From contig OZ024740.1 of the NCBI GenBank assembly GCA_964016885.1, positions 263,748,001-263,812,000 of the forward strand: a DNA stretch of 64,000 bases. Direction: 5' to 3'. Below, piece by piece: positions 4,241 to 61,508 of this stretch (positions are counted from its first letter, which is position 1; each line of letters begins with the position of its first letter). The notes below the pieces were generated by a model. That model saw nothing but the letters and a program-made list of their open reading frames with translations, did not search any database and was not told where the DNA came from. This DNA is from Eledone cirrhosa. Its lineage: Eukaryota. A program made the translations under genes and the position numbers.

Positions 4241-4338
4241 AGTATATGCGCGCGTGTGTGTGTGTGTGTGTTTATGCGTGTGTGTCGATATAGATTTGTA
4301 TAAATGAATATATGAATATGTATATATATATAAACATT

Positions 4339-5087
4339 AAATGGAAAAAATGAAATTACATTTCTCACTCTTAGTACGGCTTAAATATAAGTATGTATAA
4401 GTACATACATATATGTATACAGACGTATACGGGCTGTTTGTTTACAAACAAACCGAACATATAATAAATGTTCGGTAAAACCATACGTACATATATATAT
4501 GTGTCCATGTATGTATGTATATACATACTACTGTACGTCTGTATAAATATATGTATGTACGTATACATACTTATATTTAAGTATCAGCCGTACTAAGAGT
4601 GAGAAATGAAATTTCATTTTTTCCATTTATCGTTTTTGGTAGTACTGGCCGACTAACTGACTCGATATGGAAATTTGGCTGCTCTGCCGTTAATATGCAT
4701 AAGGAAAGTATATACTTTGAAATGTTCAATCGACTGACAGGAAGGTATACAGTCCTGATGACAACTAATCAGTTAGAATCTAGTTCATCGTTCCTTTGTC
4801 AGTGTTGAACAAAAGAGTAACGATGGTTGCCGAACACTGTACGGCTAATTCGGGCTGTTTGTTTACCAACAAATCGAACATTATAATAAATGTTCGGTAA
4901 ACCCATACGTACATACATATATATGTGTGCATGTATGTATGTATATACATACTACTGTACGTCTGTATACATATATGTATATACGTATACAGTATCAGCC
5001 GTACTAAGAGTGAGAAATGAAATTTCATTTTTTCTACTTATCGTGTTCGGTACGCTCGGCCGACTAACTCACTTGATATGCAAATTA
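4339..5087 (+). mobile_element. Non-coding hammerhead-bearing repeat (family E, copy 1): ~1.5 tandem units of 421 bp plus an inverted 5' piece
   Basis: CGGGCTGTTTG recurs at 4430 and 4851. 4339-4427 is the reverse complement of ~4534-4628. Homologous to 60531-61170. Confidence 0.85.
4749..4791 (+). ncRNA. Degenerate type I hammerhead ribozyme motif
   Basis: CTGATGA-c-AACT-aatc-AGTT-a-GAAT-ctagtt-catcgt; GAAA is mutated to GAAT. Homologous to the better-preserved motif at 60881. Confidence 0.6.
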
Positions 5088-5931: not shown

Positions 5932-5993
<62 letters not shown>

Positions 5994-6005
5994 GTTATTG
6001 TTATT
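5788..6005. repeat. Compound trinucleotide microsatellite (CAT)n(ACT)n(GTT)n(CTT)n(ATT)n
   Basis: Direct reading; the ATT block is the left end of the retroelement array. Confidence 0.95.
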
Positions 6006-7271
6006 CCTTGAATCTCAGTCATTGATGTTGGTTAACTGGAAAGTCCGTTGGATTGAATATCAAGCCACTACCTGCAGCCTCAGATATTCAGGACGTATCG
6101 GAGGGTTCTTGCTGTTCCAAGCAAGCATGCCTTTTGAAGCGTTCCAAAAAGCGCGAAGGGGCCGATTTTCTTTAACCATCCCTGGAAACTTTTGGAGATA
6201 GTCCCCAGTGCGCCTATGACAATCGGGATCACTTTGACTTCATGGCAGTTCCAAATCCTTTTCACCTCCCACTTTAGGTCCTGGTATCGGTTAATTTTCT
6301 CCCTCTCCTTCTCTTGCAATCTCGTGTCGAACGGGCAGGCCACATCCATAATCAGACACGATCTTTTTTCTTTGTCCACAACCACCAGGTCAGTTCTATG
6401 GTGCTCCAGTTTTTTGTCCGTCTGTATCCTAAAATCCCACAGCACCTTCACCTGATCGTTCTCCATCACCGCCTCTGGCCTATGCTCATACCATTTCTCA
6501 GAATGTGGTAAATTGTTTACTTTGCACAGGTGCCAGTGGATCACCCTGCCCATCACATCGTGTCTCCAGCCCTTATAGTGGGTCTGGGCTAGGTGTTTAC
6601 ACTCGGACACAATGTGAGCCACAGTCTCCTCTCTCTCTCCACAGATCCTGCACAGTGGGCTAGCCTCCTACTTGTAGATATGGTGCTTCAACCACTTCGT
6701 TTTGAGGGCCTGCTCCTGCGCAGCCATTAGCATTCCTTCTGTAGCCTTTTTGAGGTCTCCTCTTCTCAACCAGTTCCATGTCTGTGGATCTCTAAATTCA
6801 GTTTTCTCAAAGAAGGTACTATGAAGGGATTTTCCCTTAAGGCTGCTCTTCCTCCTTGATGTTATTTCCTCCTTAGACATCCCCTGGCCTACTGTACCCT
6901 CCTTCAGTACAGTTCTGAGCATTGGCTCCTTACTATAGGTCACGTATTTGTATAGGTTGTTTTTCTCCATCTGAACACAGTCCTCTATGATGATAAGACC
7001 TCTTCCACCCTCAGATCTCCTTAGGTAGAGTTTATCGACATCACTCCTTTTGTGGAACATGTTGTAGATAGTCAATAGCTTCCTAGTCTTCCTATCCATT
7101 TCTTTTTGTTCAGCAACATTCCATCTCAGAATTCCCGCACTGTACCTAATAATAGACACAGCTCGGGAATTTACTGCGCTTATGGCATTTCTGCTGTTCA
7201 GATGTGACTTCAATACGCTCCTTACTCTCCGAATGTATTCAGTTCTTAACAATTCCTTCATTTTTTTGTTC

Positions 7272-7275
<4 letters not shown>
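6006..7275 (-). mobile_element. 5'-truncated R4/Dong-like RLE LINE (family A, copy 1)
   Basis: C-terminal region with CCHC knuckle, WRHD and RLE motifs (PD mutated to TD); internal stop at 6668; TTA repeats at both ends. Confidence 0.92.
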
Positions 7276-7304
<29 letters not shown>

Positions 7305-7316
7305 GTTGTTGTTATT

Positions 7317-8393
7317 CCTTGAATCTCAGTCATTGATGTTGGTTAACTGGAAAGTCCGTTGGATTGAATATCAAGCCACTCCCTGCAGCCTCAGATATTC
7401 AGGACGTATCGGAGGGTTCTTGCTGTTCCAAGCAAGCATGCCTTTTGAAGCGTTCCAAAAAGCGTGAAGGGGCCGATTTTCTTTAACCATCCCTGGAAAC
7501 TTTTGGAGATAGTCCCCAGTGCGCCTATGACAATCGGGATCACTTTGACTTCATGGCAGTTCCAAATCCTTTTCACCTCCCACTTTAGGTCCTGGTATCG
7601 GTTAATTTTCTCCCTCTCCTTCTCTTGCACTCTCGTGTCGAACGGGCAGGCCACATCCACAATCAGGCACGATCTTTTTTCTTTGTCCACAACCACCAGG
7701 TCAGGTCTATTGTGTTCCAGTTTTTTGTCCGTCTGTATCCTAAAATCCCACAGCACCTTCACCTGACTGTTCTCCATCACCGCCTCTGGCCTATGCTCAT
7801 ACCATTTCTCAGAGTGTGGTAGATTGTTTACTTTGCACAGGTGCCAGTGGATCACCCTGCCCATCACATCGTGTCTCCAGCCCTTATAGTGGGTCTGGGC
7901 TAGGTGTTTACACTCGGACACAATGTGAGCCACAGTCTCCTCTCTCTCTCCACAGATCCTGCACAGTGGGCTGGCCTCCTCCTTGTAGATATGGTGCTTC
8001 AACCACTTCGTTTTGAGGGCCTGCTCCTGCGCAGCCATTAGCATTCCTTCTGTAGCCTTTTTGAGGTCTCCTCTTCTCAACCAGTTCCATGTCTGTGGAT
8101 CTCTAAATTCAGTTTTCTCAAAGAAGGTACTATGAAGGGGTTTTCCCTTAAGGCTGCTCTTCCTCCTTGATGTTATTTCCTCCCTGGACATCCCCTGGCC
8201 TACTGTCCTCTCCTTCAGTACAGCTCTGAGCATTGGCTCCTTACTACAGGTCACGTATTTGTATAGGTTGTTTTTCTCCATCTGAACACAGTCCTCTATG
8301 CTGATAAGACCTCTTCCACCCTCAGATCTCCTTAGGTAGAGTCTATCGACATCACTCCTCTTGTGGAACATGTTGTAGATAGTCAATAGCTTC
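7317..8393 (-). mobile_element. 5'-truncated R4/Dong-like RLE LINE (family A, copy 2)
   Basis: Open frame 7391-8386: CRICGEREETVAHIVSEC, RHD, NRPDLVVVD..DVACP..EKINRY. Same 3' junction as the other A copies. Confidence 0.93.
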
Positions 8394-8419
8394 GTAATTA
8401 TTATTATTATTATTATTAA

Positions 8420-8459
<40 letters not shown>

Positions 8460-8476
8460 GTTATTATTATTATTGT

Positions 8477-8578
8477 TGTTCTTTTTACACGCAGAAATTC
8501 ACTTTTGTACCGTCCTGTATTGTCCTGTACTGTCCTTAATGTCTACTTTATGTAAACCCTTGTGGTTAATAAAGAAAG

Positions 8579-8615: not shown

Positions 8616-8829
8616 GAATGCCATGGTTGACGGAGGCTCGGCTCTGTAAGGTATAGTAATTTTTAACCGTTAAAACAATTGTAAATTGTTTAAAACTTGA
8701 ACCAAATTGTTGATAAAGACACCCTCCTCCTCGTGAGAGGGGTCTTTCTGTCCGTTGTTTGGCCCTTCGGGGTTAAATAACCAGTTATTGGGGTTTTGTA
8801 CCCAATATTCATTTTAAACAAAAAACAAC

Positions 8830-10926
8830 ATGGCTACGAAAAAGAAATTTCATACGTCACTCCCACTCATTCCGTCTTCTTCTTCCTCAATCATCACTAC
8901 AGCAGAGAGAAGATTGTCTCTCTCCCTCCCTTCTTTAAATGTGTCTCTCTCCCTCCCTTCTCTTTCGCAAGCGACGAAAGAAAAGAAAAGTCTCGTGCAA
9001 AGCGTGCAAGGTTTCTCCACGACGACGACGACAGCGACGAAACAGGTGTGCGGGAAATACGAAAACCCAGTTCATTCGTCTGACGTCAGGAATAATAGCA
9101 GTAGCAGCCGTAATAACAACAGCAACAGTGACAATGAAAACAACAGTAGCAGCCGCAACAGCATCACCAGCAGCATAAACAACAACAGCATTAGCAGCAG
9201 CAACACCAACAACAACCACAGCAACAGCGGCGGAGGCAGTAGTCGTAGTACCTGCAGCAACAACAAAAGTACCAGCAGCTCTGACGACAACAACAACAGC
9301 AGAGAAAAACCAATCTCATTTGCAGGTATTGCGAAAAACTTGGAAACAATCCTCATAACAAATGAGGAATTAGAGGAAGCGAAGAAGATGGTGACAAAGA
9401 ACGGACACCGAGCAATCTGCAAGGCAGCGAAAAATTTTTTCGAAACCCAAGAGCACTGTACGGTCACGTACCGTACAGTAAGTACAAAATCCCGTAGGGT
9501 GGAAAGAGCCACAGAGGCCCAAATACAAAAAGCCTTGGGGTCTGTGTGGCAGAGGAAAACGCACATCACCCGAGGCAAAAAATACGCCACCGTAGACGTA
9601 CTTTTTGCCACACCCCAGGAGGCAAAGGCCCAATCAGTAGTGACCCTAAGGAGCGAGGAAATGGTGTTGGTGCCCTCCTACTGCGGGCAAAAAATTGTGA
9701 GGGTCAAACTGACCCACGTCCCCCCCGGAATGACCCCTTCTTGGCTGGCCGCGTCTGTCCTCGTCGGAATCGAGGACAAAACAACTGTACTGCAAGTACA
9801 GAAAAAAGTAAGAGAAGATTGGGTCGGCTCCTCCATTGAGATGCTAATCCAAACCAACCAGGAGTGCATCGAAGCTATCCCGGATGTGATAGACTTCGAT
9901 AACGGCACTCAACTGCCCATAAGTGTTGAGGGCAAACGCCCGAAATGCTTTCGCTGTGGATCGAAGACTCACCTCAGGGCCTTCTGCAACGAGAAGACCC
10001 TGAGAAAGGAGAAAACCCCCCTCCTTCCGAATCCGGCTCCACGGCTACCAGCAACAGGACAAGCGGCAACCAGGAACGATAGGTCCGTGGCACCCATACC
10101 CACTCCACGGAAATCAAAGACAGCAGCAGCAGTGGAAATATTAACAACAACAACAGCAATACCAAATGCAGCTGCAACAGAGACTCCAGTGCAAACATCA
10201 CCAACAACAACAAGTGAAAGAGTGGAGCTGGTACCCCTCCCCGACCTTACAGAATCAGACATGGAGTGTGAGGTGGGAGAGGGATGGCAAAAGGTCGCAA
10301 GAAGGCACAAACGCAGAAGCAGCGCATCGTCGCCTTTGAAAAGGGAGGAAAGAAATGAGAAAAGGGTAAAGTCTACTGCAAAGAGACCCACAGCAGCAAC
10401 ACCACCAACACCATCACCACCCACACCAGCACCACCATCACCACCGGCGACAACCCCACCGCCAACAACACCTTCAACACCACCACCACAAGCACCAACA
10501 TCGCAAACACAACAACAAAACACACACACCCAGCAACAACGACAAGAAAATAGCAGAACCACACCCCACCCCCAGAAAAACAAATGCACGGCAATAAACA
10601 CACACAACAAGAAACTAATGACTTACATAATTGAACACACAGACATTTCACAACAGGACTACATAATACCAGCACCAATCAAAACGCCAACTAACATAAG
10701 ACTGCTAAAAATAGCACAGAAACAATACACAAACATTAAAACGAAATTCCCCAACGCAGTTGGTGATTTCAGGGACCTAGGAGGAACCATCAATCGAAGA
10801 GTATATTCAGACATTCTCTTAGAAGAGCCGACGACCAGCCGAAGGGACGATTCAACGGTCCCTTCACCAGACGATCAAGTGAAAAGGGATGTAAAAACCA
10901 TCCCTCCTCTACCAAAAGTACGGTAA
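8830..10926 (+). CDS. LINE ORF1p (gag-like nucleic-acid-binding protein, 698 aa)
   Basis: CCHC knuckle CFRCGSKTHLRAFC, basic WQKVARRHKRR segment, N/S- and P/T-rich low-complexity regions; lies upstream of ORF2. Confidence 0.88.
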   Translation: MATKKKFHTSLPLIPSSSSSIITTAERRLSLSLPSLNVSLSLPSLSQATKEKKSLVQSVQGFSTTTTTATKQVCGKYENPVHSSDVRNNSSSSRNNNSNSDNENNSSSRNSITSSINNNSISSSNTNNNHSNSGGGSSRSTCSNNKSTSSSDDNNNSREKPISFAGIAKNLETILITNEELEEAKKMVTKNGHRAICKAAKNFFETQEHCTVTYRTVSTKSRRVERATEAQIQKALGSVWQRKTHITRGKKYATVDVLFATPQEAKAQSVVTLRSEEMVLVPSYCGQKIVRVKLTHVPPGMTPSWLAASVLVGIEDKTTVLQVQKKVREDWVGSSIEMLIQTNQECIEAIPDVIDFDNGTQLPISVEGKRPKCFRCGSKTHLRAFCNEKTLRKEKTPLLPNPAPRLPATGQAATRNDRSVAPIPTPRKSKTAAAVEILTTTTAIPNAAATETPVQTSPTTTSERVELVPLPDLTESDMECEVGEGWQKVARRHKRRSSASSPLKREERNEKRVKSTAKRPTAATPPTPSPPTPAPPSPPATTPPPTTPSTPPPQAPTSQTQQQNTHTQQQRQENSRTTPHPQKNKCTAINTHNKKLMTYIIEHTDISQQDYIIPAPIKTPTNIRLLKIAQKQYTNIKTKFPNAVGDFRDLGGTINRRVYSDILLEEPTTSRRDDSTVPSPDDQVKRDVKTIPPLPKVR

Positions 10927-10961
10927 GTGGTCTTTCCCATCTTTTCCACTCTATTTTAAAC

Positions 10962-13900
10962 ATGACCTCACTCAGAATAGGCAGCATAAATGCGCGTGGC
11001 TTGGGGTCGTCATGGAAGCAGGGTCACCTGCTCAACGACCTCAGGTCACTAAACATAGATGTAGTGGCCATCAGCGAGACCAGAATCTCCGAAGCACGGG
11101 CCTTCGCACCGATCTTCGGCGGCTACGATGTGTACGCATCTCCCAGCCGTCCTGGATCCGGTGGAGGAGTTGCTGTGCTTTTTCGGAGAGGTTTGGATCT
11201 CGCCATACGGGCCATCTTCCTGGACCCAGAGGGTAAGCTGGTGGTGCTGGACGTGACCAGCGGAGACGGGCAAGCTTTCAGGCTAGTGGCCGTCTATGCC
11301 CCGACAGGAGCAGGGCGGCCTGATTTCTTCCGGCGTCTGGAGACCTTTCTTGGAACGTCCCGCTCTTTAGTGTTAGTGGGCGACTGGAACGGGATCTTAG
11401 ATGCACGCTGGGACTGTGTGGGATTAGCGGATAGGGGTGGAGGGTGCAAGAGCCTCACCAACCTGCTCAGGCGTTTTGAACTGTCTGACAGGTACCGATT
11501 GGATTTCCCGAATGTGCCAATGTGGACTTGGACAAACCGCATAGGGTCATCCAGATCATATCTAGATAGAGTATTTTGTAGGGAAATAGATAGGTCTAGC
11601 ATAGGCTGTCCACAATTCAAGATAGTCAGCTACACGGACCACAAATTCGTGATCTGTGTGCTTGACTTAGATAGGCTTCATAGACGAGGACCCGGCTACT
11701 GGAAGCTAAACGCGTCCTTACCAGCGCGCAAGGCCTACAGAGACCGGATTAGCGAACTAGTTAAGCGGGCATTGACGGGGGCCATCGTCAACAACAAGTG
11801 GTGGTTTGCTCTGAAAAGAGCGATTAGAATAGAATCGATTAGGTTTAGTAAGGCTTTAGCAATAGAGAAAAATAGAGCAGAGGGAGAACTAGTTAGAAAA
11901 TTAGACGAGGCGCTTAGCAAAGGCATTGCGACCGACGTGCTTGCGGCGAAATTGGCCCTTGACCAATTCTTCAATGCAAAGCACGAAGGCTGCGTTGTCA
12001 GAGCTAGGGTGCGTGCTCTCAGACACGAGGGGACGAAAGCCGTTCAATGGGCCCGAGTGGCGGAGGCGCGTCGTGGCAACAAAGCCACGATCCGGTCTTT
12101 GGTGGACCACGACGGGCGCATGCTACTCGATCCCGGGCAAATGTGTGAAGCTTTTCAGCGACACTTCGCTCAGCTGTTCGGGGGCAGCGGGGGGCCGGGT
12201 AGAGGGATGGACTTTAGTGTCTACCTCGACGGACTGCCGCGGCTCTCGGCCACTGAGGCGAAGTGTTGCGAAAAGCCGATAACAGCCGCTGAAGTAAGGG
12301 AGGCAATGACTGGCTGCACAAGGGGTAAATCGCCTGGTTTGGATGGTCTGCCCTATGAACTTTACGTACAGATGCCAGACTTGTTCGGAGGCCTCTTGGC
12401 GGACGTCTACTGCAACTGGCAACAGAACGGGAGAATTCCCAGTTGTGTGAGCCGAGGAGCGGTGGCACTGCTGAGAAAGGATCCGAACAAGGGGGATAAC
12501 ATAGAAAATTTCCGGCCCATAACTCTGCTAAACACAGAGTTTAAGATTTTGGCCAAGGTGCTAGCAAAGAGGTTGGCGCTTGTCGTTGGTGGTCTGGTGG
12601 GAGAGGCGCAGACATGCGCCATTCCCGACAGATCCATCCACGACAACCTCCACCTCATGCGATACATCGTAGAGAGGGTAGCTAGGGAACCTGGCACGGG
12701 TGGGTCCTTGATCAGTTTAGATCAGTCGAAAGCTTTCGATAGGGTCGACCATCGTTACCTAGCGGCAGTCCTGAGGGCGGCTGGCTTTGGGCCCGTCTTC
12801 AGAGGCTGGATCGCTGCCATGCACAGCGACATCTGCTCTGTGGTGAGAGTGAACGGTCACCTGTCGGAACCGTTCAACATCATGCGCTCGGTCCGCCAAG
12901 GATGTCCCCTCTCGTCCCTCTTGTACGTATTGACTCTCGAGCCATTACTGCACAAACTGGAGACGTTGAGGGGGGTCCCGCGCGAACTAGGATGCGGAAG
13001 ATCCGTATCAGCATATGCGGACGATGTCACCGTAGTGGTGTCGAACGCCAAACACATCGAGGCGATCGGCACTACACTAAGAGAATACGAAGCGGTGACA
13101 GGAGCAATGATCAACCAGGAAAAGTCAGTGGGCCTGCAGCTCGGCACCTGGAGAGGCAGGTCCATGCCGTCCAACAGCGTCGTCGGACGCTGGACGGACG
13201 GACCGGTTAAATTGCTAGGGGTCTGGTTCGGTCCGGACCTCCAGACGGACAAAAACTGGGACGAGGTGACGAGCAGGGTGGCTTCTCTCACCCAGAAATG
13301 GGCGGAGAGGAAGCTATCCCTGAAAGGTCGAGCGGAGGTGGCTAACGCGTACATCGCGTCTGTCATCTGCTACCGCCTAACCGTCGTACCTTGTCCTAAG
13401 CCTCGCCTGACTGCGCTGGAGCGTTTGCTCTTTCGCTTTTTGTGGAAGGGACGTGCTCCGATGGTCAGGCGGTCCATCTGTTGTCAACACCCGCTACGTG
13501 GAGGGCTGGGCATGCCGTGGCTGATGATGCACAGGCACGCGCTCAGGCTACGACATCTCCACCTCTTCCTCGACGGTGATCAGGTGTGGTCGCCGTTTGC
13601 TAGACGCGTTTTTCCCCAGCTCGTTTCCTTGACGGAGCTGCAGTCCTGGGTCAAGCGAAGACCGAGAGGGAGCGCCTGGAGACTGGAATGTCTTCAGGCG
13701 CTCACAGCCCTCGACCAATCGGGCAATGTGATCGGTGGAAACTCCACCTCGGCATTCTATAGAGGATTAGTGGAGGGGAAGAGCGACGACGTACTTGGGG
13801 AAACTCTAGGCGTCGACGAAAATCAACTAGCCAATCTCTTCGGAAGAACTTTCGGGCCAGGGCCTATGGACAACTTCCAGAAATCTCTGGCCTGGCAGTG

Positions 13901-14381
13901 CTACCGAGGAGCTTTGCCAGTTCGGGATAAACTCTACAGGCATGGAGGTGCCGTCAGCCGGGCATGTCCGAGATGCGCGCATGGCGACGAAACCGTCCTG
14001 CACGCACTCGTCCAGTGTCCGAAAATTGCTGACTTGTGGGTTTATGTCGAACACCTGCTGTCGCGTTTAGGACGGATCCAGCTATCATCTGAGTCTATCG
14101 TGAAGATTGCCCCGCCCTCCTCCTTTAGCCGGGAAGGGCAGGCAGTTTTTATCTGTCTGGTGGCCATGGCGAAAGAGATAGTATGGTGGACACGTTTGAA
14201 AGGGCTGAAGACGAGCACTTACCTCTTCGGTGATGCTCTGATTGACTTTTTCAAATTTCATTTGAAAAGGAAAATCAGAGTAGAGAGGGAAGTGCTCTCT
14301 TCCCAGCATTTTGTTGAAAGATGGGTGAGAGAAGCAAGAATGGCCCGAGTGAATGGGCCGACTCTGAGTATATATCTGTAA
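10962..14381 (+). CDS. LINE ORF2p: AP-like endonuclease + reverse transcriptase + C-terminal zinc knuckle (1139 aa)
   Basis: APE motifs NARGL, SETR, VYAP, GDWN, LDR and TDH; GYWKLNASL; RT motifs KSPGLDG, FRPITLLN, DQSKAFDRV, RQGCPLS and YADD; C-terminal CPRC..ETVLHALVQC. Confidence 0.97.
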   Translation: MTSLRIGSINARGLGSSWKQGHLLNDLRSLNIDVVAISETRISEARAFAPIFGGYDVYASPSRPGSGGGVAVLFRRGLDLAIRAIFLDPEGKLVVLDVTSGDGQAFRLVAVYAPTGAGRPDFFRRLETFLGTSRSLVLVGDWNGILDARWDCVGLADRGGGCKSLTNLLRRFELSDRYRLDFPNVPMWTWTNRIGSSRSYLDRVFCREIDRSSIGCPQFKIVSYTDHKFVICVLDLDRLHRRGPGYWKLNASLPARKAYRDRISELVKRALTGAIVNNKWWFALKRAIRIESIRFSKALAIEKNRAEGELVRKLDEALSKGIATDVLAAKLALDQFFNAKHEGCVVRARVRALRHEGTKAVQWARVAEARRGNKATIRSLVDHDGRMLLDPGQMCEAFQRHFAQLFGGSGGPGRGMDFSVYLDGLPRLSATEAKCCEKPITAAEVREAMTGCTRGKSPGLDGLPYELYVQMPDLFGGLLADVYCNWQQNGRIPSCVSRGAVALLRKDPNKGDNIENFRPITLLNTEFKILAKVLAKRLALVVGGLVGEAQTCAIPDRSIHDNLHLMRYIVERVAREPGTGGSLISLDQSKAFDRVDHRYLAAVLRAAGFGPVFRGWIAAMHSDICSVVRVNGHLSEPFNIMRSVRQGCPLSSLLYVLTLEPLLHKLETLRGVPRELGCGRSVSAYADDVTVVVSNAKHIEAIGTTLREYEAVTGAMINQEKSVGLQLGTWRGRSMPSNSVVGRWTDGPVKLLGVWFGPDLQTDKNWDEVTSRVASLTQKWAERKLSLKGRAEVANAYIASVICYRLTVVPCPKPRLTALERLLFRFLWKGRAPMVRRSICCQHPLRGGLGMPWLMMHRHALRLRHLHLFLDGDQVWSPFARRVFPQLVSLTELQSWVKRRPRGSAWRLECLQALTALDQSGNVIGGNSTSAFYRGLVEGKSDDVLGETLGVDENQLANLFGRTFGPGPMDNFQKSLAWQCYRGALPVRDKLYRHGGAVSRACPRCAHGDETVLHALVQCPKIADLWVYVEHLLSRLGRIQLSSESIVKIAPPSSFSREGQAVFICLVAMAKEIVWWTRLKGLKTSTYLFGDALIDFFKFHLKRKIRVEREVLSSQHFVERWVREARMARVNGPTLSIYL

Positions 14382-14642
14382 ACTAAAGGTGGAAAACTGG
14401 GAGAGGGCACTTGCCTTGGTGGTCAGGGTCATTGTGGCTTTTTACTGGGCTTTCTCCACAAATGTCCCTCCGAAGTCTCCCCCCTATTGGGGAATTTTTC
14501 ATTGTTATTTTCATTGTTATTTTTGTTACATCCTCTGTTTTTGTTTTTTTTACACGCAGAAATGCCCATTTGTACCGTCCTGCATTGTCCTGCACTGTCC
14601 TTAATGTCTACTTTATGTAAACCCTTGTGGTTAATAAAGAAA

Positions 14643-14710
<68 letters not shown>

Positions 14711-14711
<1 letters not shown>

Positions 14712-17700
14712 CTTGAGTCTCAGTCATTGATGTTAGTTAACTGGACAGTCCGTTGGAATGAATATCAAGCCACTACCTGCAGCCTCAGATATTCAGGACG
14801 TATCGGAGGGTTCTTGCTGTTCCCAGCAAGCATGCCTTTTGAAGCGTTCCAAAAAGCGTAAAGGGGCCGATTTTCTTTAACCATCCCTGGAAACTTTTGG
14901 AGATAGTCCCCAGTGCGCCTATGACAATCGGGATCACTTTGACTTCATGGCAGTTCCAAATCCTTTTTACCTCCCACTTTAAGTCCTGTTATCGGTTAAT
15001 TTTCTCCCTCTCCTTCTCTTGCACTCTCGTGTCGAATGGGCAGGCCACATCCACAATCAGACACGATCTTTTTTTTCCGTCTGTATCCTAAAATCCCACA
15101 GCACCTTCACCTGATCGTTCTCCATCACCGCCTCTGGCTTATTCTCATACCATTTCTCAGAATGAGGTAAATTGTTTACTTTGCACAGGTGCCAGTGGAT
15201 CACCCTGCCAATCACATCATGTCTCCAGCCCTTATAGTGGGTCTGGGCCAGGTGTTTACACTCGGATACAATGTGAGCCACAGTCTCCTCTCTCTCTCCA
15301 CAGATCCTGCACAGTGGGCTAGCCTTCTCCTTGTAAATATGGTGTTTCAACCACTTCGTTTTGAGGGCCTGCTCCTGCGCAGCCATTAACATTCCTTCTG
15401 CAGCCCTTTTAAGGTCTCCTCTTCTCAACCAGTTCCATGTCTGTGGATCTCTAAATTCAGTTTTCTCAAAGAAGGTACTATGAAGGGATTTTTGCTGAAG
15501 GCTGCTCTTTCTCCTTGATGTTATTTCCTCCTTGGACATCCCCTGACCTATTGTCCCCTCCTTCAGTACAGTTCTGAGCATTGGCTCCTTACTATCAGTC
15601 ACGTATTTGTGTAGGTTGTTTTTCTCCATCTGAACACAGTCCTCTATGCTGATAAGATCTCTTCCACCCTCAGATCTCCTTAGGTAGAGTCTATCGACAT
15701 CACTCCTCTTGTGGAACATGTTGTAGATAGTCAATAGCTTCCTAGTCTTCCTATCCATTTCTTTTTGTTCAGCAACATTCCATCTCAGAATTCCCGCACT
15801 GTACCTAATAATAGACACAGCTCGGGAATTTACTGCGCTTATGGCATTTCTGCTGTTCAGATGTGACTTCAATACGCTCCTTACTCTCCGAATGTATTCA
15901 GTTCTTAACAATTCCTTCATTTTTTTGTTCTTTATGCCATCAGCCTCCAGAACGCCCAAATACTTGTATCCTTCCTCAGAGTCAATTTACTTTATCATCT
16001 CACCTGTTGGTATCTGGATTCCGTTACTTCTGTTCAACCTACCCCTCCTCATCACAATGACTCCACACTTACTAATACCAAACTGCATACATATATCACT
16101 GCTGAAAATACGCACAGTGTCAACAAGCACATCCAACTCCTTCTCACTCTTCCCGAAGTGCTTAAGATCGTCCATGAAGAGGAGGTGATTGATGGTAAAA
16201 CCTCCCTTTCCCAACCTGTATCCTGCTCTCACTTTTCGCAGTACAGTGGTCAGAGACATCAGGGCAAGGACAAACAACAGAGGGGACAGGCTATCTCCCT
16301 GGAAGATACCTCTCTTGATCTTCACGCTTCCCAAGGATTCTCCAGTTGATGTCAACTCTGTTTCCCAGGACCTCATACTTTTGCCCAACAACTGTCTGAT
16401 GTTATCTGCCACCTTGAAGATCTCCAGGCTTTTGGTGATCCAAGAATGAGGCACCATGTCAAATGCCTTTCTGTAGTCTATCCATCCCATGACAAGATCA
16501 GTGTGTCTCCTCCTGCAATTCCCCATTACCATCTTATCAATAAGTAACTGGTCCTTTGTACCACGGCATCCTTTCTGTTCGTCCGGTAACAAGTTGTTTG
16601 TGTGGAGGTGATGGTAGATTTCCTCAGACACAATGCTCGTCAACAGTTTCCACATTACGGACAGACATGTGATAGGTCTATAGTTGGTAACATCATTACC
16701 CTTGATTCGGTCTTTCATTATCAGAACGGTGGTACCTTTTGTCAACCACTCTGGTACCTCACCTGACATCAAGCATTCATTGAACATGGTTGTCAGTTTC
16801 GGGTGGAGGTATGTTATATTTTTAATCCAATACCCCTGCACACCATCTGGGCCTGGTGATTTCCAGTCGGTTAGTTTTTTGGCCTGCCCCTTAAGAGTTT
16901 CAACTGTGATACTCAAATCAGTTTGTTGGTGTGCCTGTTCACCGATCTCCTTCTGTACTGTCTCAATCCACACTGCCTGGTCATTATGTCTAACATCCTG
17001 TTCCCATATTCCTCTCCAGAATGTTTTAGTTTGTTCCGCCTCAGGGATCAAGTCGTTGCCTCTTTCTTTCCCCTCAAGCTGTCCAAACAGCATCTTCTGG
17101 TTGTTGTCGAACATGCGGTTCTGTTTATACTGACTGACTCTGTTCTCGTATCGCCTGATTTTTGCACTCTTTGCTACAATGCGTTGCTTCAGTTCTTCTA
17201 TGATAGTATTTAGCTTTTTCCTCCTAGTTTTGTACTTTATTTCTAGTCTATTTTTAGTGTCTATGTTTTTTAGTGTCCCATTCAGCAGTGACTCAAGCTT
17301 TCCAATGTCATTTCTCATTTCCCTGATTTGACCACTCAGTCGTTTCTTCCACCAAGGCTCTGCTCTTTCTTGTCTGTTGTTTCCTCTCGCTTTTATACCA
17401 AGTAGTTTCCTCACCGTATTTGCTGTTGCTTTGAGGATATTGTTGCACTGGTGAAGGCTCCTCGCCTCAAGGTATGGGATGACTTTGTTTACCTTAGCTG
17501 TTGTTTCTTTTAACTTTTTCCTGTCTACAAATCTTAGGTTCATAGGTCTCCCACTATCATTGTTCAATTCATCTACCACTAAATTTAGGATGTCAACCAA
17601 ATCTTGTCCTAGCCCGTCAGCATTCATCTCCTCAGTGGCCGTATCTCCCTTCCAGGTATTATTTATCTCAGTATTCAGATCATTGTCTGCTTCGGGTGGT

Positions 17701-18275
17701 TCCTCCGTTCTCTCGACCTCTTCACCTTCATTTCCCACTGGCTCGTTTGCCTGGCATACTCCACCCTCCATCTCCAAGCTAATCTCTCTGCTCAGTTCCT
17801 CCAGTTCCAGTTCGCTTATCCACCCATTAGTTCTTATTACCCGAGCCTGCTCGGCCAATTTTTGTTCATCTAATTTAAATAGACCAATTTTGTTTCAGAT
17901 GTTAAGCATCCGTCTCCTATAGCCCCTCTCCTTGGGGTTACTTTTCAGGTAACATTGTATAACAGTTCTATTCAATTCTTTCGTCCAGTTGGTTCTGGTC
18001 CCTTTCCTTCTTCTTCCTCCGACACCAGCAGTATTTGGTTGACAGCCAGGTCCCTGCTGCTGAGCCAGGGAGCACCTGTTGGGTGAGAGTCTGTCACATG
18101 ACGTTCTAGTCTCCATTTCACCGTTATTCGAACTGTTTAGATTCGACATTTAAACACTCTTATCGAGGATTGGCGAATGTATGGTTACATAACCACCCGT
18201 GGATTCACCGTCTCCGGTGGTTGCGTTGCTCCACGTGGCTCTTGTGTGGCATTATCACGCTGTAGACGAACACAA
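14711..18275 (-). mobile_element. Near full-length but disabled R4/Dong-like RLE LINE (family A, copy 3)
   Basis: Single ORF from ATG 18149, broken at 17895, ~15987 and ~15070 (deletion removes the RPD motif). RT motifs KSPGPDG, YRPITCL, DYRKAFD, IFQGDSLSP and FMDD. 5' boundary uncertain. Confidence 0.92.
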
Positions 18276-19139
18276 ATAAACAAACAAACAAACAGCCAGA
18301 AAAAACCCCCAAAATGAATAAGCATAAGTTTCATTGTAATGTAGTGTTCGAATGTCTGACTTAGTTTTTCCCTTCCCTTCTCTGTCCGTCCGTTTGTTTC
18401 TCTCTTCATTCTTATTTTCTTTATGTGTTTTTGTTTTTGTTTTTTCTCTGTTTGTTTCTTTTTGTTGTTGTTGCTGTGCTGCTTTGGTTTTGATTTTTGT
18501 TTTTTCTTTTGAGTCTATCTATATATTTTGATGCCTTCCTCTTTTTTAGTAGGAATTCTATAATATAGTGGCGGTGCTATGCTAGCAGCAACTAGCAGGA
18601 GGCAATGGGAGAGAATAGCGGCGGTAGCGATACTGAGGCAGCGGTGGATGTGATGTGATCGTATTACTGTAGTGATGGTGTTGTAGCGGTGGTAGCAATG
18701 AAGGAGTGGTGGCGGCGGTGATGGGATAGTGGTAGTAATGATGGATGGGCGGCGGCGGCGGTGACTGTAGTGATGGTGTTGTCGTTACTGATGTCCGTTC
18801 GGTGAATCTATGGGGTTAGTCGCGTACGTGTTGACATAAATTCCCTTAATGTTGGAATTAAACATTTTGTTAAAACTTGGGACAATAATAATAGTAGTTA
18901 TTATTATCATTATTATGTTGAGATTGGTTGTGGTGGTGATGAAATTGCCGTTATCTGGCTGTTGCGTTTAGTGTACACAGAGGGGTGATGGGGTAGGTGG
19001 TGTATCTAGTTTCTGGTGTTGGTGAAATTGTTGTTGTTTGGCTGTTCTATATAGTGTAGACAGAGGAGGGGGGGTTCTTCTTCTTCCATTTATAGCCATT
19101 TTCTTTTTTTGAATATACAATGTTCAATACAAAGTTGAA

Positions 19140-19218
<79 letters not shown>

Positions 19219-19236
19219 GTTATTATTATTATTGTT

Positions 19237-20740
19237 CTTTGCGTCTCGTCATTGATGTTAGTTAACGGGAAAGTTTGTTGAAATGAATATCAAGCCACTA
19301 CCTGCTGCCTCAGATATTCAGGACGTATCGGAGGGTTCTTGCTGTTCCCAGCAAGCATACCTTTTGAAGTGTTCCAAAAAGCAGGGCGGGACCAATTTAC
19401 TTTAACAATCCTTGGAAACTCTTTGAGATGGTACCTAGTGCGCCTATGACAATCGGGACCACTTTGACCTCATGGCAGTTCCAAATCCTTTTTACCTCTT
19501 ACTTCAAGTCCTGGTACCGGTTAATTTTCTCCGTCTCCTTCTCTTGCACTCTCGTGTCGAATGGGCAGGCTACATCCACAATCAGGCACGATCTTTTTCC
19601 TTGTCAAAACCACCAGGTCAGGTCTATTGTGTTCCAGTTTCTTGTCCGTCTGTATCCTAAAATCCCTCAGCACCTTCACCTGATCGTTTTCCATCACCGA
19701 CTTTGGCTTATGCTCATACCACTTCTCGGAATGTTGTAAATTGTTTACTTTGCATAGGTGCTAGTGGATCACCCTGCCCATCACATCATGTCTCTAGCCC
19801 TTATAGTGAGTCTGGGCTAGGTGTTTACACTCGGATACAATGTGAACCACAGTCTCCTCTCTCTCTACAGATCCTACACAGTAGGCTAGCCTCCTCCTTG
19901 TAAATATGGTGTTTCAGCCACTTCGTTTTGAGGGCCTGCTCTTGCGTAGCCATTAGCATTCCTTCTGTAGACTTTTTAAGGTCTCCTCTTTTTAACCAGT
20001 TCCATGTCTGTGTATCTCTAAATTCAGTTTTCTCAAAGAAGGCACTATGAAGGGATTTTTCATGAAGGTTGCTCTTTGTCCTTGTTGTTATTTGCTCCTT
20101 GGACATCCCCTGGTCTATTGTCCTCTCCTTCAGCACAATTCTGAGCATTGGCTCCCTACTATCAGTCACGTATTTGTGTAGGTTGTTTTTCTCCATCTGA
20201 ACACAGTCCTCTATGCTGATAAGACCTCTTCCACCTTCAGATCTCCTTAAGTAGAGTGTATCGACATCACTCCTTTTGTGGAACATGTTGTAGATAGTCA
20301 ATAGCTTCCTAGTCTTCCTATCCATTTCTTTATTCCATCTCAGAATTCTTTCACTGTACCTAATAATAGACACAGCTCGGGTATTTACTGCACTTATGGC
20401 ATTCCTACTGTTTAGATGTGACTTTAATACGCTCCTTACTCTCCGAATGTATTCAGTTCTTATCAATTCCTTCACTCTTTTGTTCTTGATGTCATCAGCC
20501 TCCATATCACCTAAATACTTGTATCCCTCTTCAGTATAAATTTCCTTTATCTTCTCACCTGTTGGTATCTGGATTCCGTTGCTTCTGCTCAATTTACCCC
20601 TCTTCATCAAAAGGAATCCACACTAATACCAAATACTAATACCAAATTGCATACATAATTGCATACACACTAATACCAAATACTAATACCAATTACTAAT
20701 ACCAAATTGCATACATATATCGTTCCTGAAAACTAAGTAA
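19237..20740 (-). mobile_element. Older, more diverged 5'-truncated family A copy (copy 4)
   Basis: ORF 19825-20610 is homologous to A3; 3' end abuts (ATT)n at 19141-19236. Confidence 0.9.
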
Positions 20741-27819: not shown

Positions 27820-30522
27820 GGAAGCAGAAAATTGCTTACTGTAATGCAGTTCGTGGTTAAGACAGCCAGTTTCATGGGCGTTTTCAACGTATGGTTAGGG
27901 GTAACTCCACAAGTTTGTAAGAATCACGTTCAATCTTGCAGTGTAAAGGATAAAAGAGAAAACAAAGGTAGGCATTAAAAAAAGGATGTTACCCCCACAT
28001 TTAATCTCTAGGACCATAAGGTAAATTTTGATTATAACCCCACAATTAGCCTTATATGCCCGTCCAAATCGGACATGGGGAAAATTAGTAAACATATATT
28101 AGACAGAGTGATAGCACAAATGAAGAATAAACCAGTAATTAAACTATGGGGTAACACTACAGAAACAATTAAATGGTTTAACAATATAACTAACAAAAAA
28201 GTATCTAAGTTTATACAATACGACATTAACGACTATTACTCCTCTCTATCTCCCAACACCTTGGATAAAGACTTAGCATTCGCCAAAGCCAAGTCTGACC
28301 TAACAGACGACGAGATAAATATTATATTAGCTGCTAGGAAAACAATAATTAAATTTGAAAACGTCTATTGGGAACGTAAGGATAGATTAAATATCTTCGA
28401 CATCACGATGGGGGCTAATGACTCTGCTCAAGTCACAGATTTAGTAGGTATTTACATAGCCCATAATTTACAGAGGGTGTTTAGCGAGTTTCACGGTGGA
28501 ATCTACAGAGACGACGCCCTTCTCCTAGTTAAGAGCCTAAATAACCAGAGCATAGAAAGACTATCGGGAAACTGGGCCTTAGCATAACGTATGAATATAG
28601 CACTAAAATAGCTAACTTCCTAGACGCGACGATTAACCTAAATACGGGACTTATACGACCTTTACACAAGATTAATGAAAATTTAGCATACATCAACTGT
28701 AATTCGAACCACCCACTATCCCTTAGGATCTCCCGCCTCTCATCTAACCAACAAATCTTCGAGGAACATGCAGATTACTACAATACCGCACTCGACAAGG
28801 CAGGCCACTTAGATAGAGGAGAATATATATATGAAAGCCTCCACAAAGCACACACGAACACGCATAGCACAAACTCCAGAAACACACGCACACACAAATT
28901 ATAATGAAAATAGAAATACAACATAGAAATCAAGCAGGTCACGCAGTAGAAAATATATTTGGTATAACCCCATATTTAACACCTCTATTAGTACTAACCT
29001 ACCCTCTACCTTCTTTAGAATAATAAATAAGCACTTTCCAGATTCACATAGATACAGCAAAATCTTTAACACTAAATCTATTAGACTATCTTACTCCACG
29101 GCACCAAACATAGCGGCACACATTAAGATGATTAACGCTAAAAAGATACGTAACAACACCAGAACACAAATTTATAACAATAACAATACAATTACCATTG
29201 AACACAACAGGATATCTAATACACAACCACCCACTAATAGGCAAACAAGACGTAACGCACTTGTACAGGTAGCGCAGCCCACTAATAATGCCAAGGTTGC
29301 CCATGACAAGAATTGTAATTGCCACCTACCTGAAACCTGTCCATTGCATAACGAATGTATGCAGTCTAACCTGGTTTACCAATGCACAGTGGAATCAGAC
29401 AACCAGTGATGGTATTACATCGGAACGACGGGGAATACATTTAAAGCTCGTTGGTATACACACCGTTACGCAATGAAACATTCCCAGCATCGTTATGTAA
29501 CTACCCTTGCGAACAAGACCTGGCAACTGAGGGAAAGCAATCATCAATACACCCTGAAGTGGAAAAAAGTATCGAACGCGCCCCCATATCGGAGTGGTAT
29601 GAGAAGCTATCGATTATGTGACCTTGAGCTGTTCCACATTTTGAGTTCGAAGAAAAAGTTACTCAACAATAAAATCGAAAGATCGATTTATTGTAAACAT
29701 AGACTCAAAGAAAAGTTTTCGCACTACAAGTGCAAATCGAACCCTTAACCTCTTACTACTACCACCTGACAAACTGCATATACTTAGACTTTCGACCCTC
29801 CTATTGTATTCAACCCCTTTAATTACCCACAAAACCAATACCTACATCCCTCCCTTCACCTTCATTCCTTTTCTATTTCTTTTCGTTATCTTCCTTTCTT
29901 CTCTCTCCCTTTTTTATGTCTTTTCTTTTCTTCTCTCCTCCTTCTTTATTTATTTATTTATTTATTTATTATTTATTTTTTTTATATATATATATATTTA
30001 TTTATTTATCTCTCTATCTCTCCCCTCTCTCTCTCTTTTTCTCTCTCTCTTTTCTCTCTCTCTCTCTCTCTCTCTCTCCATCCCTCCCACTATAAACCAT
30101 TTAATTCTCTTTAACTCACTACACTCTAAATCAACGACATCATGTCTACATAAACCAAAACTGATCAAAGATTCCTTCAAAATATACCCCTCCCTCCATC
30201 TCAGTTTGTCACCCTACTTCCTAATTATTCTCCCCCTTCCTCTCTCTCTATACTACTCCCTTTGTCCCTCCACTTTCTAATTCCTCTTCCTCTCTCTCTA
30301 TACTAGCAAATACAATTCCAAAAAATGTTTTTCACTATATATTAAGAACTTGTTAAGAGTAACTTATTCACTATTTTGAAAATTTGGACGTGTACAACAA
30401 TTATTATTGAGTGGCTGCTATTTGCAGTATAGCAATATAAGGTTGCACTTACCAATGAAACAGTCGTAAATACCTAGATAAAATCCCTTTTTTAATGTTT
30501 ACCTGTGTTTTCTCTTTTATCC

Positions 30523-32397: not shown

Positions 32398-32442
32398 AAA
32401 TTCTGATGAAGGAATAGTGTCCGAAACCTTAAGTCATCATTT
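32398..32442 (+). ncRNA. Hammerhead-like motif with an extra A after the core
   Basis: CTGATGA-A-GGA-atagtg-TCC-GAAAC cttaa GTC; stem I is weak. Related motif at 41435-41460. Confidence 0.45.
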
Positions 32443-32549: not shown

Positions 32550-33378
32550 TTCTTCTGGTTTTATAATTTCACAAAGTTTTAACAATAGAGAGAGAGAGTC
32601 GGTTTCTAACATAGACACAAGACTCTCTCATTGGAATTTACACAACATCAACTAGGTAGATATGTATGTATGCATGCATGTGTAGATATGGATGTTATTG
32701 TATGTGTGGATGTGGATGTTTTGAGTTGTATGTGTGCATGTGTATATGCTTTGTATCTGTACATGTGTATATGCAGTTATTAGATGTACAATTTTTGGAA
32801 TGTTTTACATATTTTTACTGTTCCATTAATGGATTGTACTTGTAATTTCCTAACTAGTTGTGTTCTTTCTGTTCCTGTGAAGCCTAGCTTCTCAAGATTT
32901 GTATTGAGGTAGTTACTAACATAACCCAGTGCCCCAATAATCACAGGCATAAATCTGAAGGTGTAATCAGAATGGAGTATCTGCAGATTTCTCATCAGTT
33001 CTGCATAAATATTCTCCTTTTCACTAATCTTTGATATTATATTGGCATCTGCTGGGCAGCTAACTCCCACTACTGTGCATGTTTTCTTCTCCCTGCCCCA
33101 TATCATAATATCTGGTCTGTTATGCCTGCATTTTATTGGGGGTTTTATTAGAACATTCCACCAGTACTCTTTCATATTATGTACATGGATGTCTTCCACA
33201 TTGTTGTAGCTTTTAATGTGTTTATTATCGGGGCTATCTTTTTTACGAACTGCATTGTACAGTGTTTTGGCCACTACATCATGCCTCATAGGTAGATAGT
33301 ACATCGATGACATCTTTGGACAGCTGCTGATGACATGGGTGATATCCTCGATGTTAGTTCTGCAGAGTCTGCACTTGT
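32550..33378 (-). mobile_element. 5'-truncated family B RLE LINE
   Basis: ORF 32780-33313 (YYLPMRHD, HNRPDIMIW); same 3' junction as the copy at 1769; TATG at both ends. Confidence 0.92.
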
Positions 33379-33401
33379 ATGTAAGTATGTATGTATGTAT
33401 G

Positions 33402-36002: not shown

Positions 36003-36097
36003 ATGTATGTATGTATGTATGTATGTATGTATGTATGTATGTATGTATGTATGTATGTATGTATGTATGTATGTATGTATGTATGTATGTATGTATT

Positions 36098-36507
36098 CCG
36101 GGAGAGATAACCCCTTAGCCTTTGTCAAGGCAGAATTCTAGGAGAAGGAAAACTCTGATATAACACCTGCAACCCTGATAGTATCCAATGATGTTGACTT
36201 GTTCTTCTTCTTGGTAAATAACTTCTCGGTTAAGAGAGTGGGACTGGATTTGTGCAGTGCCTTTGCTCACTATAAAAGTTTCACGGCACAGGTATTGCTT
36301 TATATCTGTAGATCTCTCTGCACTTGTCATCACATGGTACCATGTGCCCAGCACTATGTGTCAGTAATTGTCGCAAGTGTAGTGTTTGCACCAGAGTTTT
36401 CTAGTCGCTGGCTGGACTATAAACTCACACTCGTTCAGCGCATCAGTAGGGGTTCTCCTACATGGATATAAAGTAGTGGCCGTACTCGAAAACGAGTTGG
36501 CAGCCAC
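36098..36507 (+). mobile_element. 5'-truncated copy of non-coding element D
   Basis: Homologous to 38291-38700; same 3' hairpin, followed by CAT(GTAT)n. Confidence 0.85.
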
Positions 36508-36527
36508 CATGTATGTATGTATGTATG

Positions 36528-37897: not shown

Positions 37898-37898
37898 G

Positions 37899-37932
<34 letters not shown>

Positions 37933-38078
37933 TGTATGTATGTATGTATGTATGTATGTATGTATGTATGTATGTATGTATGTATATCTGTTTCTATATA
38001 TATGAAATGTGTGTGTGCTTATGAATAAAAACGAGAAGGAAATCTAAGATGCTGAAAATAGAAAGCGGGAAAAGTCTG

Positions 38079-51857: not shown

Positions 51858-51905
<48 letters not shown>

Positions 51906-60530: not shown

Positions 60531-60537
<7 letters not shown>

Positions 60538-60560
60538 TACGTACATATATATATGTGTGC

Positions 60561-60639
<79 letters not shown>

Positions 60640-61078
60640 TATGCATGCTACTGTACGTCTGTATACATATATGTATGTACATATACATACATACTTACAT
60701 TTAAGTAAGTGCCGAATTAAGAGTGAGAAATTAAATTTCGTTTCATTCTATTACAACTTATCGTTTTCGGTGCGCCTGGCCGACTGAACTCACTCGATAT
60801 GCAAATTAGGCTGCTCAGCCGTTAATTTTCATAAGGAAAGTATATACTTTCGAACGTTCAACCATCTGGCAGAAGGGTATACGGTGCTGATGATAGCTAA
60901 GAAGCTTGAAACTAGTACATGGTTCCTGTGTCAGTGTTGAACAAAAAGGTGACGTGGTTGCCTTAACACCGTACGGCATAAATTAGGCTGCCCGTTTGTT
61001 TACAAACGGACAAAGCGGGCGTTATAATAAACGTCCGCTAAACTGATACGTACATATATATATGTGTACCTGTATGTA

Positions 61079-61109
<31 letters not shown>

Positions 61110-61170
61110 GCATGCTACTGTACGTCTGTATACATATATGTATGTACGTATACATACATACTTACATTTA
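60531..61170 (+). mobile_element. Family E copy 2: ~1.25 tandem units (period 509 bp, TA-expanded)
   Basis: AAACTGATACGTAC at 60531 and 61040; homologous to 4430-5087; TA tracts on both sides. Confidence 0.85.
60881..60923 (+). ncRNA. Type I hammerhead ribozyme
   Basis: ACGGTG CTGATGA T-AGCT-aaga-AGCT-T GAAAC TA GTA CATGGT: complete core, 5/6-bp stem I, palindromic stem III (ACTAGT); predicted cut after 60917. Confidence 0.8.
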
Positions 61171-61185
61171 TATATATATACATAT

Positions 61186-61508
61186 ATTAGATAGTGAAAT
61201 AGATCGTCCACCATATTTTTCACTAAGTAAATTAGCCTAATAGTCGGAGTTATAAAAAAAAACAGAATAGAAAAAGGATGAGCATTGACGTACATGGGAC
61301 ACGAACCCACATCTTTGGCTATCATGACCAGTGTCGACCATTACGCCAATACGTCACCCACCAAATCTCCAATCAATTTGAAGCTATATAATCATACCGA
61401 CGATACAAAGATTGGCGTTTTGAAAATTTGTTTGGCTTACAAAGAGCGGAGAATTTGAAAATTAGATAGTGAAATAGAGCTTCCGCCGTATTTTTGACTA
61501 AGTAAATT
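61186..61508. mobile_element. Terminally redundant element in (TA)n (period 275 bp) carrying a tRNA-like unit
   Basis: 48-bp direct repeat ATTAGATAGTGAAATAGA.. at 61186 and 61461. Confidence 0.75.
61287..61355 (-). ncRNA. tRNA-like Pol III unit (non-canonical; anticodon arm ~3 nt short)
   Basis: Acceptor stem GACGTAT/GTACGTC, A box TGGCGTAATGG, T arm GTGGG-TTCGTGT-CCCAT, and a TTTTT run 11 nt downstream. Confidence 0.65.

Follow-up and report, generated by a model that had tools for sequence, protein, structure and literature searches.

Two loci of a 64,000-nucleotide stretch of DNA (the window) carry hammerhead motifs in TA-rich surroundings, which raises the question of what kind of repeat they belong to and how it was inserted. 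The genome measures 3.0 Gb in 1,796 contigs, and the surroundings of the loci are rich in microsatellites and retrotransposon pieces. Judged from their sequence, the two loci are copies of one non-coding, putatively mobile repeat with a predicted self-cutting RNA motif. The best explanation, which we regard as somewhat probable, is a high-copy hammerhead repeat, likely a non-autonomous parasite of Penelope-like elements (PLEs), that was probably copied from a small RNA circle.

The two loci and their family

The features of both loci (A and B) are as follows, where S and T are the two sites at which most 3' ends of the repeat lie:

4338..4427, minus strand: inverted arm of locus A, about 178-275 of the subfamily A unit; its outer 3' end is site T and runs into TA-rich DNA
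4427..5087, plus strand: forward arm of locus A, about 1.6 units, period 421, 5'-truncated at unit position ~66
4452..4476, plus strand: hairpin of locus A, with three double-sided changes relative to the B hairpin at 61015-61038
4733..4812, plus strand: decayed hammerhead of type I whose stem I is extended; the core begins at 4755 and reads GAAT in place of GAAA
60463..60530, no strand: target flank on the left of locus B, a (CA)n/(TA)n microsatellite
60531..61170, plus strand: single arm of locus B, about 1.26 units, 5'-truncated at unit position ~123; its 3' end is site S and runs into (TA)n
60695..60703, plus strand: internal copy of the 3' end site S, a small hairpin
60704..60761, plus strand: 'tail' between sites S and T, with site T at 60761
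60855..60943, plus strand: hammerhead of type I, likewise with stem I extended; its core begins at 60887 and the predicted cut follows 60917
61171..61190, no strand: (TA)n-like right target flank of locus B

The loci are 77% identical (548 columns), have TA-rich flanks and hold no ORF. Both are non-coding partial tandems, as the original prediction had described them, with periods of 421 and 509, the latter inflated by an internal TA tract. For locus A the tandem stood, but not its simplicity, since 4338-4427 is an inverted arm that had been overlooked, joined head-to-head to the forward arm at 4427. The 3' end of this forward arm (unit position ~321) is atypical; it recurs in one other insertion (L245) and, nearby, in a second (L021). 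The locus A core differs by 7% from the A majority sequence and is thus an older copy, and that of locus B, at 1.7% from the B majority, a young one.

Hammerheads were confirmed in both loci, with cores starting at 4755 and 60887. In the decayed locus A motif, the A15.1-U16.1 pair is lost and proximal stem I pairs are broken; the cut would follow 4785. The locus B motif has a 4-bp stem II closed by U.U, a palindromic stem III (60911-60916) and a private C-to-G change at 60921 that mismatches stem I, and its predicted cut site agrees with the cleavage after 60917 that had been proposed. The hairpins at 4452-4476 and 61015-61038, the long-range helix and the closing helix were likewise all recovered at their positions. 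The pairing AACT/AGTT in stem II, put forward as covariation with AGCT/AGCT, did not hold up: among 46 A hammerheads the double change occurs once and each single change in three others, and the commonest form is AGCT/AGCT, the same as in B. Because the change is private to a decayed copy and AGCT/AGCT is commonest in A, it is not evidence of covariation.

Genome-wide, locus 4427-5087 falls into a subfamily A with a unit of ~429 nt and locus 60531-61170 into a subfamily B with a unit of ~459 nt, and intermediate lineages between the two are also present. A 20-mer of B had 1,050 exact matches and one of A had 4,030, far more than chance would give, as neither reversed control had any. The family is also present in contigs of one sequencing run, which bears on its expression in neither direction. 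A search for the hammerhead-core pattern returned 39,477 matches (control, 1) and brought up a subfamily C (7,806 matches), whose unit of 466-469 nt has a canonical G10.1-C11.1 pair and the same helices as A and B; its architecture is conserved at 75-79% identity to A/B over the alignable part. Across the family, units measure 422-469 nt, TA expansion aside, arms range from less than 1 to 31 units, GC is about 0.33 and no ORF of at least 150 aa was found in the units except microsatellite frames. In ORF content and GC, the repeat agrees with metazoan non-LTR retrozymes, which are non-coding, low in GC and devoid of LTR-type structure, and its copies are dispersed head-to-tail tandems of few-hundred-base units, from dimers to multimers. 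By its sequence, the repeat is therefore best described as a young, very abundant and apparently non-autonomous retrozyme family with one hammerhead per 420-470-nt unit; it is a further animal non-LTR retrozyme, and the class is already known.

We compared 19 monomers of the A, B and C lineages, two of which (L108 and L101) are C-type despite their labels. The core and stems I-III are present in 19/19. All lineages have a proximal stem I of 5-6 bp with a long distal extension spanning the cut site, a stem II of 4-5 bp and a palindromic stem III of 6 nt, the arrangement of dimer-type hammerheads in the available text of PMC4209133. The 10.1-11.1 pair is G-C in the 5 C-type monomers and mismatched (U.U or C.A) in all 14 A/B monomers. 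All Rfam hammerhead matches fell under the gathering score: the B motif gave an E value of 0.76, the C motif matched Hammerhead_HH9 at 4e-8 and the A motif was unmatched. For the whole window, the 150 of 248 Rfam matches listed contained only microsatellite hairpins below gathering scores.

Pairing across the 19-monomer alignment is retained in 96.5% of cells, with double-sided changes in 17 of 70 pairs. The covariation score (0.246 vs 0.147) was reached by none of 500 shuffles, and the number of double-changed pairs was matched by 50 of 500, with a structure taken from the same alignment as was tested. Most compensatory cells stem from a single split, A/B vs C; a few pairs also vary inside a lineage, such as a stem I pair that takes four forms. 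Covariation across the family is genuine but based on few lineages. Folded as circles, majority units gave z-scores of -11.4 (B) and -9.4 (A), or -6.6 and -5.1 when the TA part was left out (40 shuffles each).

Against the best explanation count the mismatched 10.1-11.1 pair of A/B, the active fold, which is the minimum-energy fold in no monomer, and the Xenopus retrozyme dimers, of which 1 of 9 is reported to cleave (10.64898/2026.07.22.740005, as far as its text was covered). In its favour, an axolotl retrozyme whose stem II likewise has U.U at its base is described as cleaving to 22% as a monomer and better as a dimer, with circles of that size (PMC7229834).

Insertion ends and the two arms

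Insertion ends were mapped most fully in subfamily B. For this, the first 100 matches of the B 20-mer on C1 (~60 loci) were taken and all but the last fetched; the 20-mer sits downstream of the cut, so that crossing of the cut site was not preselected. From 85 mapped groups we removed 12 overlapping or partial views (one multi-unit array was lost in this step), 4 at locus edges and 6 below 90% identity, leaving 63 insertions that include three pairs of local duplicates. For subfamily A, we combined 20 loci matching its 20-mer and 7 matching the hammerhead core with locus A itself.

Among 101 B arm 3' ends, 41 lay at site S (unit 230-246) and the same number at site T (288-304); of the remainder, 13 fell within the internal TA tract and 6 at other positions. 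TA repeats follow 75 of the 82 S or T ends. Across the family, S and T are spaced by about 50-75 nt. The 5' ends were scattered around the unit; in B, a single one of 83 came as close as 3 nt to the cut, and ~64 of the 101 arms cross the cut site. The original prediction had read the two loci as different circular permutations of the unit and had named fixed termini in all copies among the outcomes that would speak against it. Fixed termini were found for one half of the ends: 3' ends sit at the two sites (82/101 in B) and only 5' ends vary, so that the permutation claim was mostly wrong. The apparent permutation of loci A and B is due to 5' truncation and one atypical end.

Two arms in head-to-head orientation were present in 38 of the 63 B insertions, and tail-to-tail arms in none. 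In these 38, one arm ended at S and the other at T in 25 cases, S+S and T+T pairs were absent, and 13 had one or both ends elsewhere. The same S+T pairing was found in 9/13 two-arm insertions of A and 15/17 of C, that is, in 49/49 cases where both ends were S or T, among 68 two-arm insertions of the three subfamilies. Locus A itself combines a T end with the atypical end near unit position 321. This strict one-of-each pairing suggests that, within a single event, either end takes a site of its own.

Inverted insertions with a tail at one end only are a hallmark of PLEs (PMC8557442 and PMC3846280, in the parts covered). One S and one T per insertion is this 'tail' signature, and mobilisation by PLEs is therefore well supported. 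The AT-rich and microsatellite targets are also those of a non-autonomous element mobilised by PLEs. A PLE protein from an anole was shown in vitro to cut both strands of AT-rich DNA and to extend them, beginning at two internal sites of the RNA by which the tail is defined; the available account saw no strand difference (PMC11167929). Altogether, the DNA gives strong evidence for a PLE-type two-ended insertion, and the element was very probably mobilised by a PLE reverse transcriptase; the S/T tail signature and inverted arms make a non-autonomous retrozyme moved in this way, as first proposed, the most likely reading.

The two arms are independent cDNAs, since the S arm is the longer one in 10 of the 25 S+T B insertions and the T arm of one insertion (L091) reaches outside its S arm. 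That the second arm arises by fold-back (self-priming) was rejected as a general rule; some junctions do lie in palindromes. At 15 of 25 unambiguous B junctions the arms overlap by at least 2 nt, vs 17% expected, a figure that alignment ends may inflate. Divergence was 2.3% within arms, 2.4% between arms and 4.3% between insertions, lineage variants being common to all units; of the rare variants, 41 were shared and 165 unshared. By these measures, both arms of an insertion derive from one template lineage.

The DNA argues strongly that a PLE endonuclease/reverse transcriptase cuts both strands of a (TA)n tract, and that one DNA end primes cDNA at the internal RNA site S and the other at T. 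Each cDNA runs backwards through the unit and, as the arms show, over the cut site, for 0.1 to many units, presumably on a circle. The structure of the insertions shows the variably truncated cDNA ends joined, often at short microhomology, into head-to-head arms, one with the tail and one without.

Circle, multimer or monomer as template

Long arrays bear most closely on the template. In one C insertion (L316, C1:30,831,600-30,840,900), the 6 full units of the S arm and the 12 of the T arm, 18 in all, are identical to each other and differ from two other arrays of their type at 4 and 7 positions and from a third at 60. Two further arrays (L317 and L320) show only single changes, and three (L282, L284 and L125) are uniform outside the TA hairpin. 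Because the identical units of L316 span both arms, a circular template is favoured, not proven, and we consider it moderately probable; the identity of L316 could be sharpened by assembly polishing. Rolling-circle copying, as proposed in the available text of PMC4209133 and PMC7229834, predicts arrays whose length would be set at insertion from one sequence, and the transcript of a uniform array would look alike. The circle is better argued by read-through of the cut site together with identical multi-unit arms than by permutation.

In its source, such a circle would begin with transcribed tandem copies, in which two hammerheads may pair through the palindromic stem III and excise monomers; the monomer ends, held by the long stem I, could then be ligated by a host ligase. 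A fuller version, in which an RNA circle is copied in rolling-circle fashion from both broken (TA)n ends by an asymmetric PLE dimer with its subunits fixed to S and T, seems to us evenly balanced between right and wrong.

Not all arrays are uniform. A C insertion at C1:5738327-5752443 (L273, L274) is very uneven, one arm carrying 31 hammerheads and its partner a single one. Unit haplotypes recur within the 31-unit array, possibly through higher-order duplication or error hot spots, and in three other insertions (L096, L018 and L023) variants are partly shared among units. These four cases indicate that local duplication or heterogeneous templates also act. Long arrays alone, once considered as proof of rolling-circle copying, were discarded in this role given the mixed 31-unit array.

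A PLE two-ended insertion could also have copied an uncut linear multimer, a transcript reading through tandem arrays already present; the hammerhead would then be weak or just a passenger, and a circle would be unnecessary. This would explain read-through of the cut site and the S/T ends just as well, and the recurring haplotypes of the 31-unit array speak for it, as does the fact that A and B reached tens of thousands of units despite a mismatched 10.1-11.1 pair. It also fits the anole PLE in vitro, for which the available text of PMC11167929 gives uncut RNA as the preferred and dominant substrate and no reads starting at the cut site. However, daughters copied from a linear multimer would be no longer than their source, so that long arrays need another origin; moreover, every young array is homogeneous for its own haplotype in both arms, and A, B and C all retain the catalytic core and stems I-III, with changes that compensate each other. 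We therefore hold a linear multimer to be rather unlikely. Linear self-cut monomers, on which the reverse transcriptase would jump from a 5' end to the next 3' end, are the direct product of a hammerhead, and end-to-end template jumping is known for some retroelement reverse transcriptases. Yet 5' truncations do not pile up at the cut (1/83 in B; 0/41 in C, in a sample biased towards crossing), and at 295 of 295 hammerhead cut positions examined, some of them in overlapping loci, the sequence passes into the start of the unit free of indels. Monomer jumping is largely refuted by these cut-site data and is highly improbable.

Two other readings were weighed. The high self-pairing of the unit and an architecture conserved at the identity noted above for C vs A/B would suit a viroid-like replicon, with a circle integrated at random permutations and perhaps replicating from RNA to RNA, but 3' ends are fixed and non-random and RNA-to-RNA copying is neither needed nor shown by the data, which leaves this reading scarcely credible. 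The last reading, in which the unit amounts to no more than a pseudo-LTR or 3' remnant left by a coding PLE, or to a satellite that local DNA recombination has expanded, draws on some local duplication and on 5'-truncated PLE copies (family X, below) that also give short inverted insertions with S/T ends. It is nevertheless very unlikely: what precedes a unit is a further unit, the junction of an inversion or DNA of no relation to it, the 25 single-arm 5' flanks have no common body, and the loci read contained no ORF-bearing element ending in the unit. When three PLE proteins from two clades served as probes, a PLE protein match in the flank (RT or GIY-YIG) continued into the unit in 0 of the 63 B insertions, which bears out the original view that the unit is not merely such a pseudo-LTR. 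Young copies, moreover, are dispersed and have fresh S/T ends within TA tracts new to the family, which requires transposition. The small RNA circle copied by a PLE thus stays our preferred reading.

Known retrozymes, PLEs and neighbouring elements

The family resembles the metazoan non-LTR retrozymes of coral, mussel and axolotl (Cervera and de la Pena 2020, PMC7229834; 10.64898/2026.07.22.740005, in the parts covered): its tandem units are non-coding, low in GC and self-paired when folded, each has a single type I hammerhead, copies number in the thousands and PLEs coexist with them. The axolotl HHR_Amex2 motif likewise has U.U at the base of helix II (PMC7229834). Mussel units are given as 350-390 bp, and those of A/B/C, at 420-470 nt with an internal TA hairpin, are slightly longer. 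Two-armed insertions, two fixed 3' start sites and (TA)n targeting go unreported for non-LTR retrozymes in the covered text of the same two sources. Cleavage and circles were shown for known retrozymes and are predicted for A/B/C; and 24 of 57 Xenopus families are homologous to a PLE pseudo-LTR (10.64898/2026.07.22.740005, as available), whereas for A/B/C no such homology was found among the three PLE families compared.

Endonuclease-bearing PLEs (Penelope/Poseidon, Neptune, Hydra, Naiad) share 5' truncation, partial tandems, inverted head-to-head arms, a tail at one end, two internal reverse transcriptase start sites, AT or (TA)n targets and a hammerhead with palindromic helix III (PMC8557442, PMC3846280, PMC11167929, PMC4209133, each in part). 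Unlike them, A/B/C have no ORF, a tail of ~50-75 nt vs 30-40 and up to 31 units per arm, and their hammerhead is of canonical size with an extended stem I, whereas that of PLEs is minimal. Chlamys elements such as MRC1 are similar in being non-autonomous PLE derivatives with pseudo-LTRs and multicopy head-to-tail insertions. As described in the available parts of PMC8557442, these Chlamys elements usually have 3' sequence in common with an autonomous family, and most are devoid of hammerheads; every A/B/C unit, by comparison, has a hammerhead, and no partner homology was found among three PLE families.

Earlier proposals of PLE mobilisation and a circular template were based on co-occurrence and pseudo-LTR homology (PMC7229834, PMC4209133, 10.64898/2026.07.22.740005, as covered). 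The vertebrate survey of Li, Clavereau and Pollet (2026) argued for a PLE origin in 35 animals, by its own description with no mollusc (10.64898/2026.07.22.740005), and in squid 235 hammerheads were counted, with nothing further in the text available (PMC6962438). Insertion anatomy as evidence for PLE mobilisation or a circle is absent from the portions of the literature covered. The original note knew of no description of the family, and our search among published papers likewise yielded none, nor one of two-armed retrozyme insertions.

The family provides countable footprints (two start sites, one-of-each pairing, independent arms, read-through, identical multi-unit arms), a short RNA substrate for PLE assays in vitro and, in its canonical C and weakened A/B hammerheads, a natural contrast. 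If the circle is indeed copied by an asymmetric dimer, the genome would preserve natural records of PLE priming in their tens of thousands, and no DNA evidence so far would point more directly to animal retrozyme circles as a transposition template.

Candidate helpers exist, as the genome holds intact PLE open frames of 784 and 800-801 aa. The unit was compared with three of the PLE families of the genome, which holds more, and which we take from their motifs to be one Neptune-like and two Hydra-like, and with a minimal-hammerhead family at 32403; no sequence common to the unit and these four families was found beyond nested copies. In the window, a GIY-YIG PLE fragment (50805-51900, minus strand; presumably Neptune-like by motif) belongs to a family with many intact 784-aa frames and a long CA-rich 3' UTR. 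A broken PLE at 28012-29760 (plus strand), which we assume from its motifs to be Hydra-like, has relatives with 800-801-aa frames; many copies stop at a single fixed position within (TA)n, and others extend more than 120 nt beyond it.

Family X is a hammerhead-bearing 3' end of a coding PLE that targets TA repeats (L085:881-1216, L095:3255-3734 and L126). It has two 3' ends about 95 nt apart and is twice joined head-to-head to a B arm (L085, L095); nesting in shared TA targets explains these junctions equally well, and we regard them only as a lead.

Other repeats of the window have hammerhead-like cores as well, at 32403 (plus), 41435 (plus) and 25572 (minus). The first belongs to the minimal-hammerhead family, which is old and high-copy, its 40 best matches (self aside) being 74-80% identical. 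A two-armed hammerhead repeat with a 310-bp period was also seen at L341:5462-6118. A near-perfect long inverted repeat at 44957-45044 matches other window copies in part. Partly duplicated non-LTR fragments with RT and C-terminal zinc motifs lie on the minus strand at 5937-8542, 14642-20657 and 32780-38018. Finally, the window holds an apparently intact LINE (8818-14381, plus strand), which we take to be L1/Tx1-like, with open frames of 702 and 1204 aa, the second with endonuclease, RT and zf-RVT domains.
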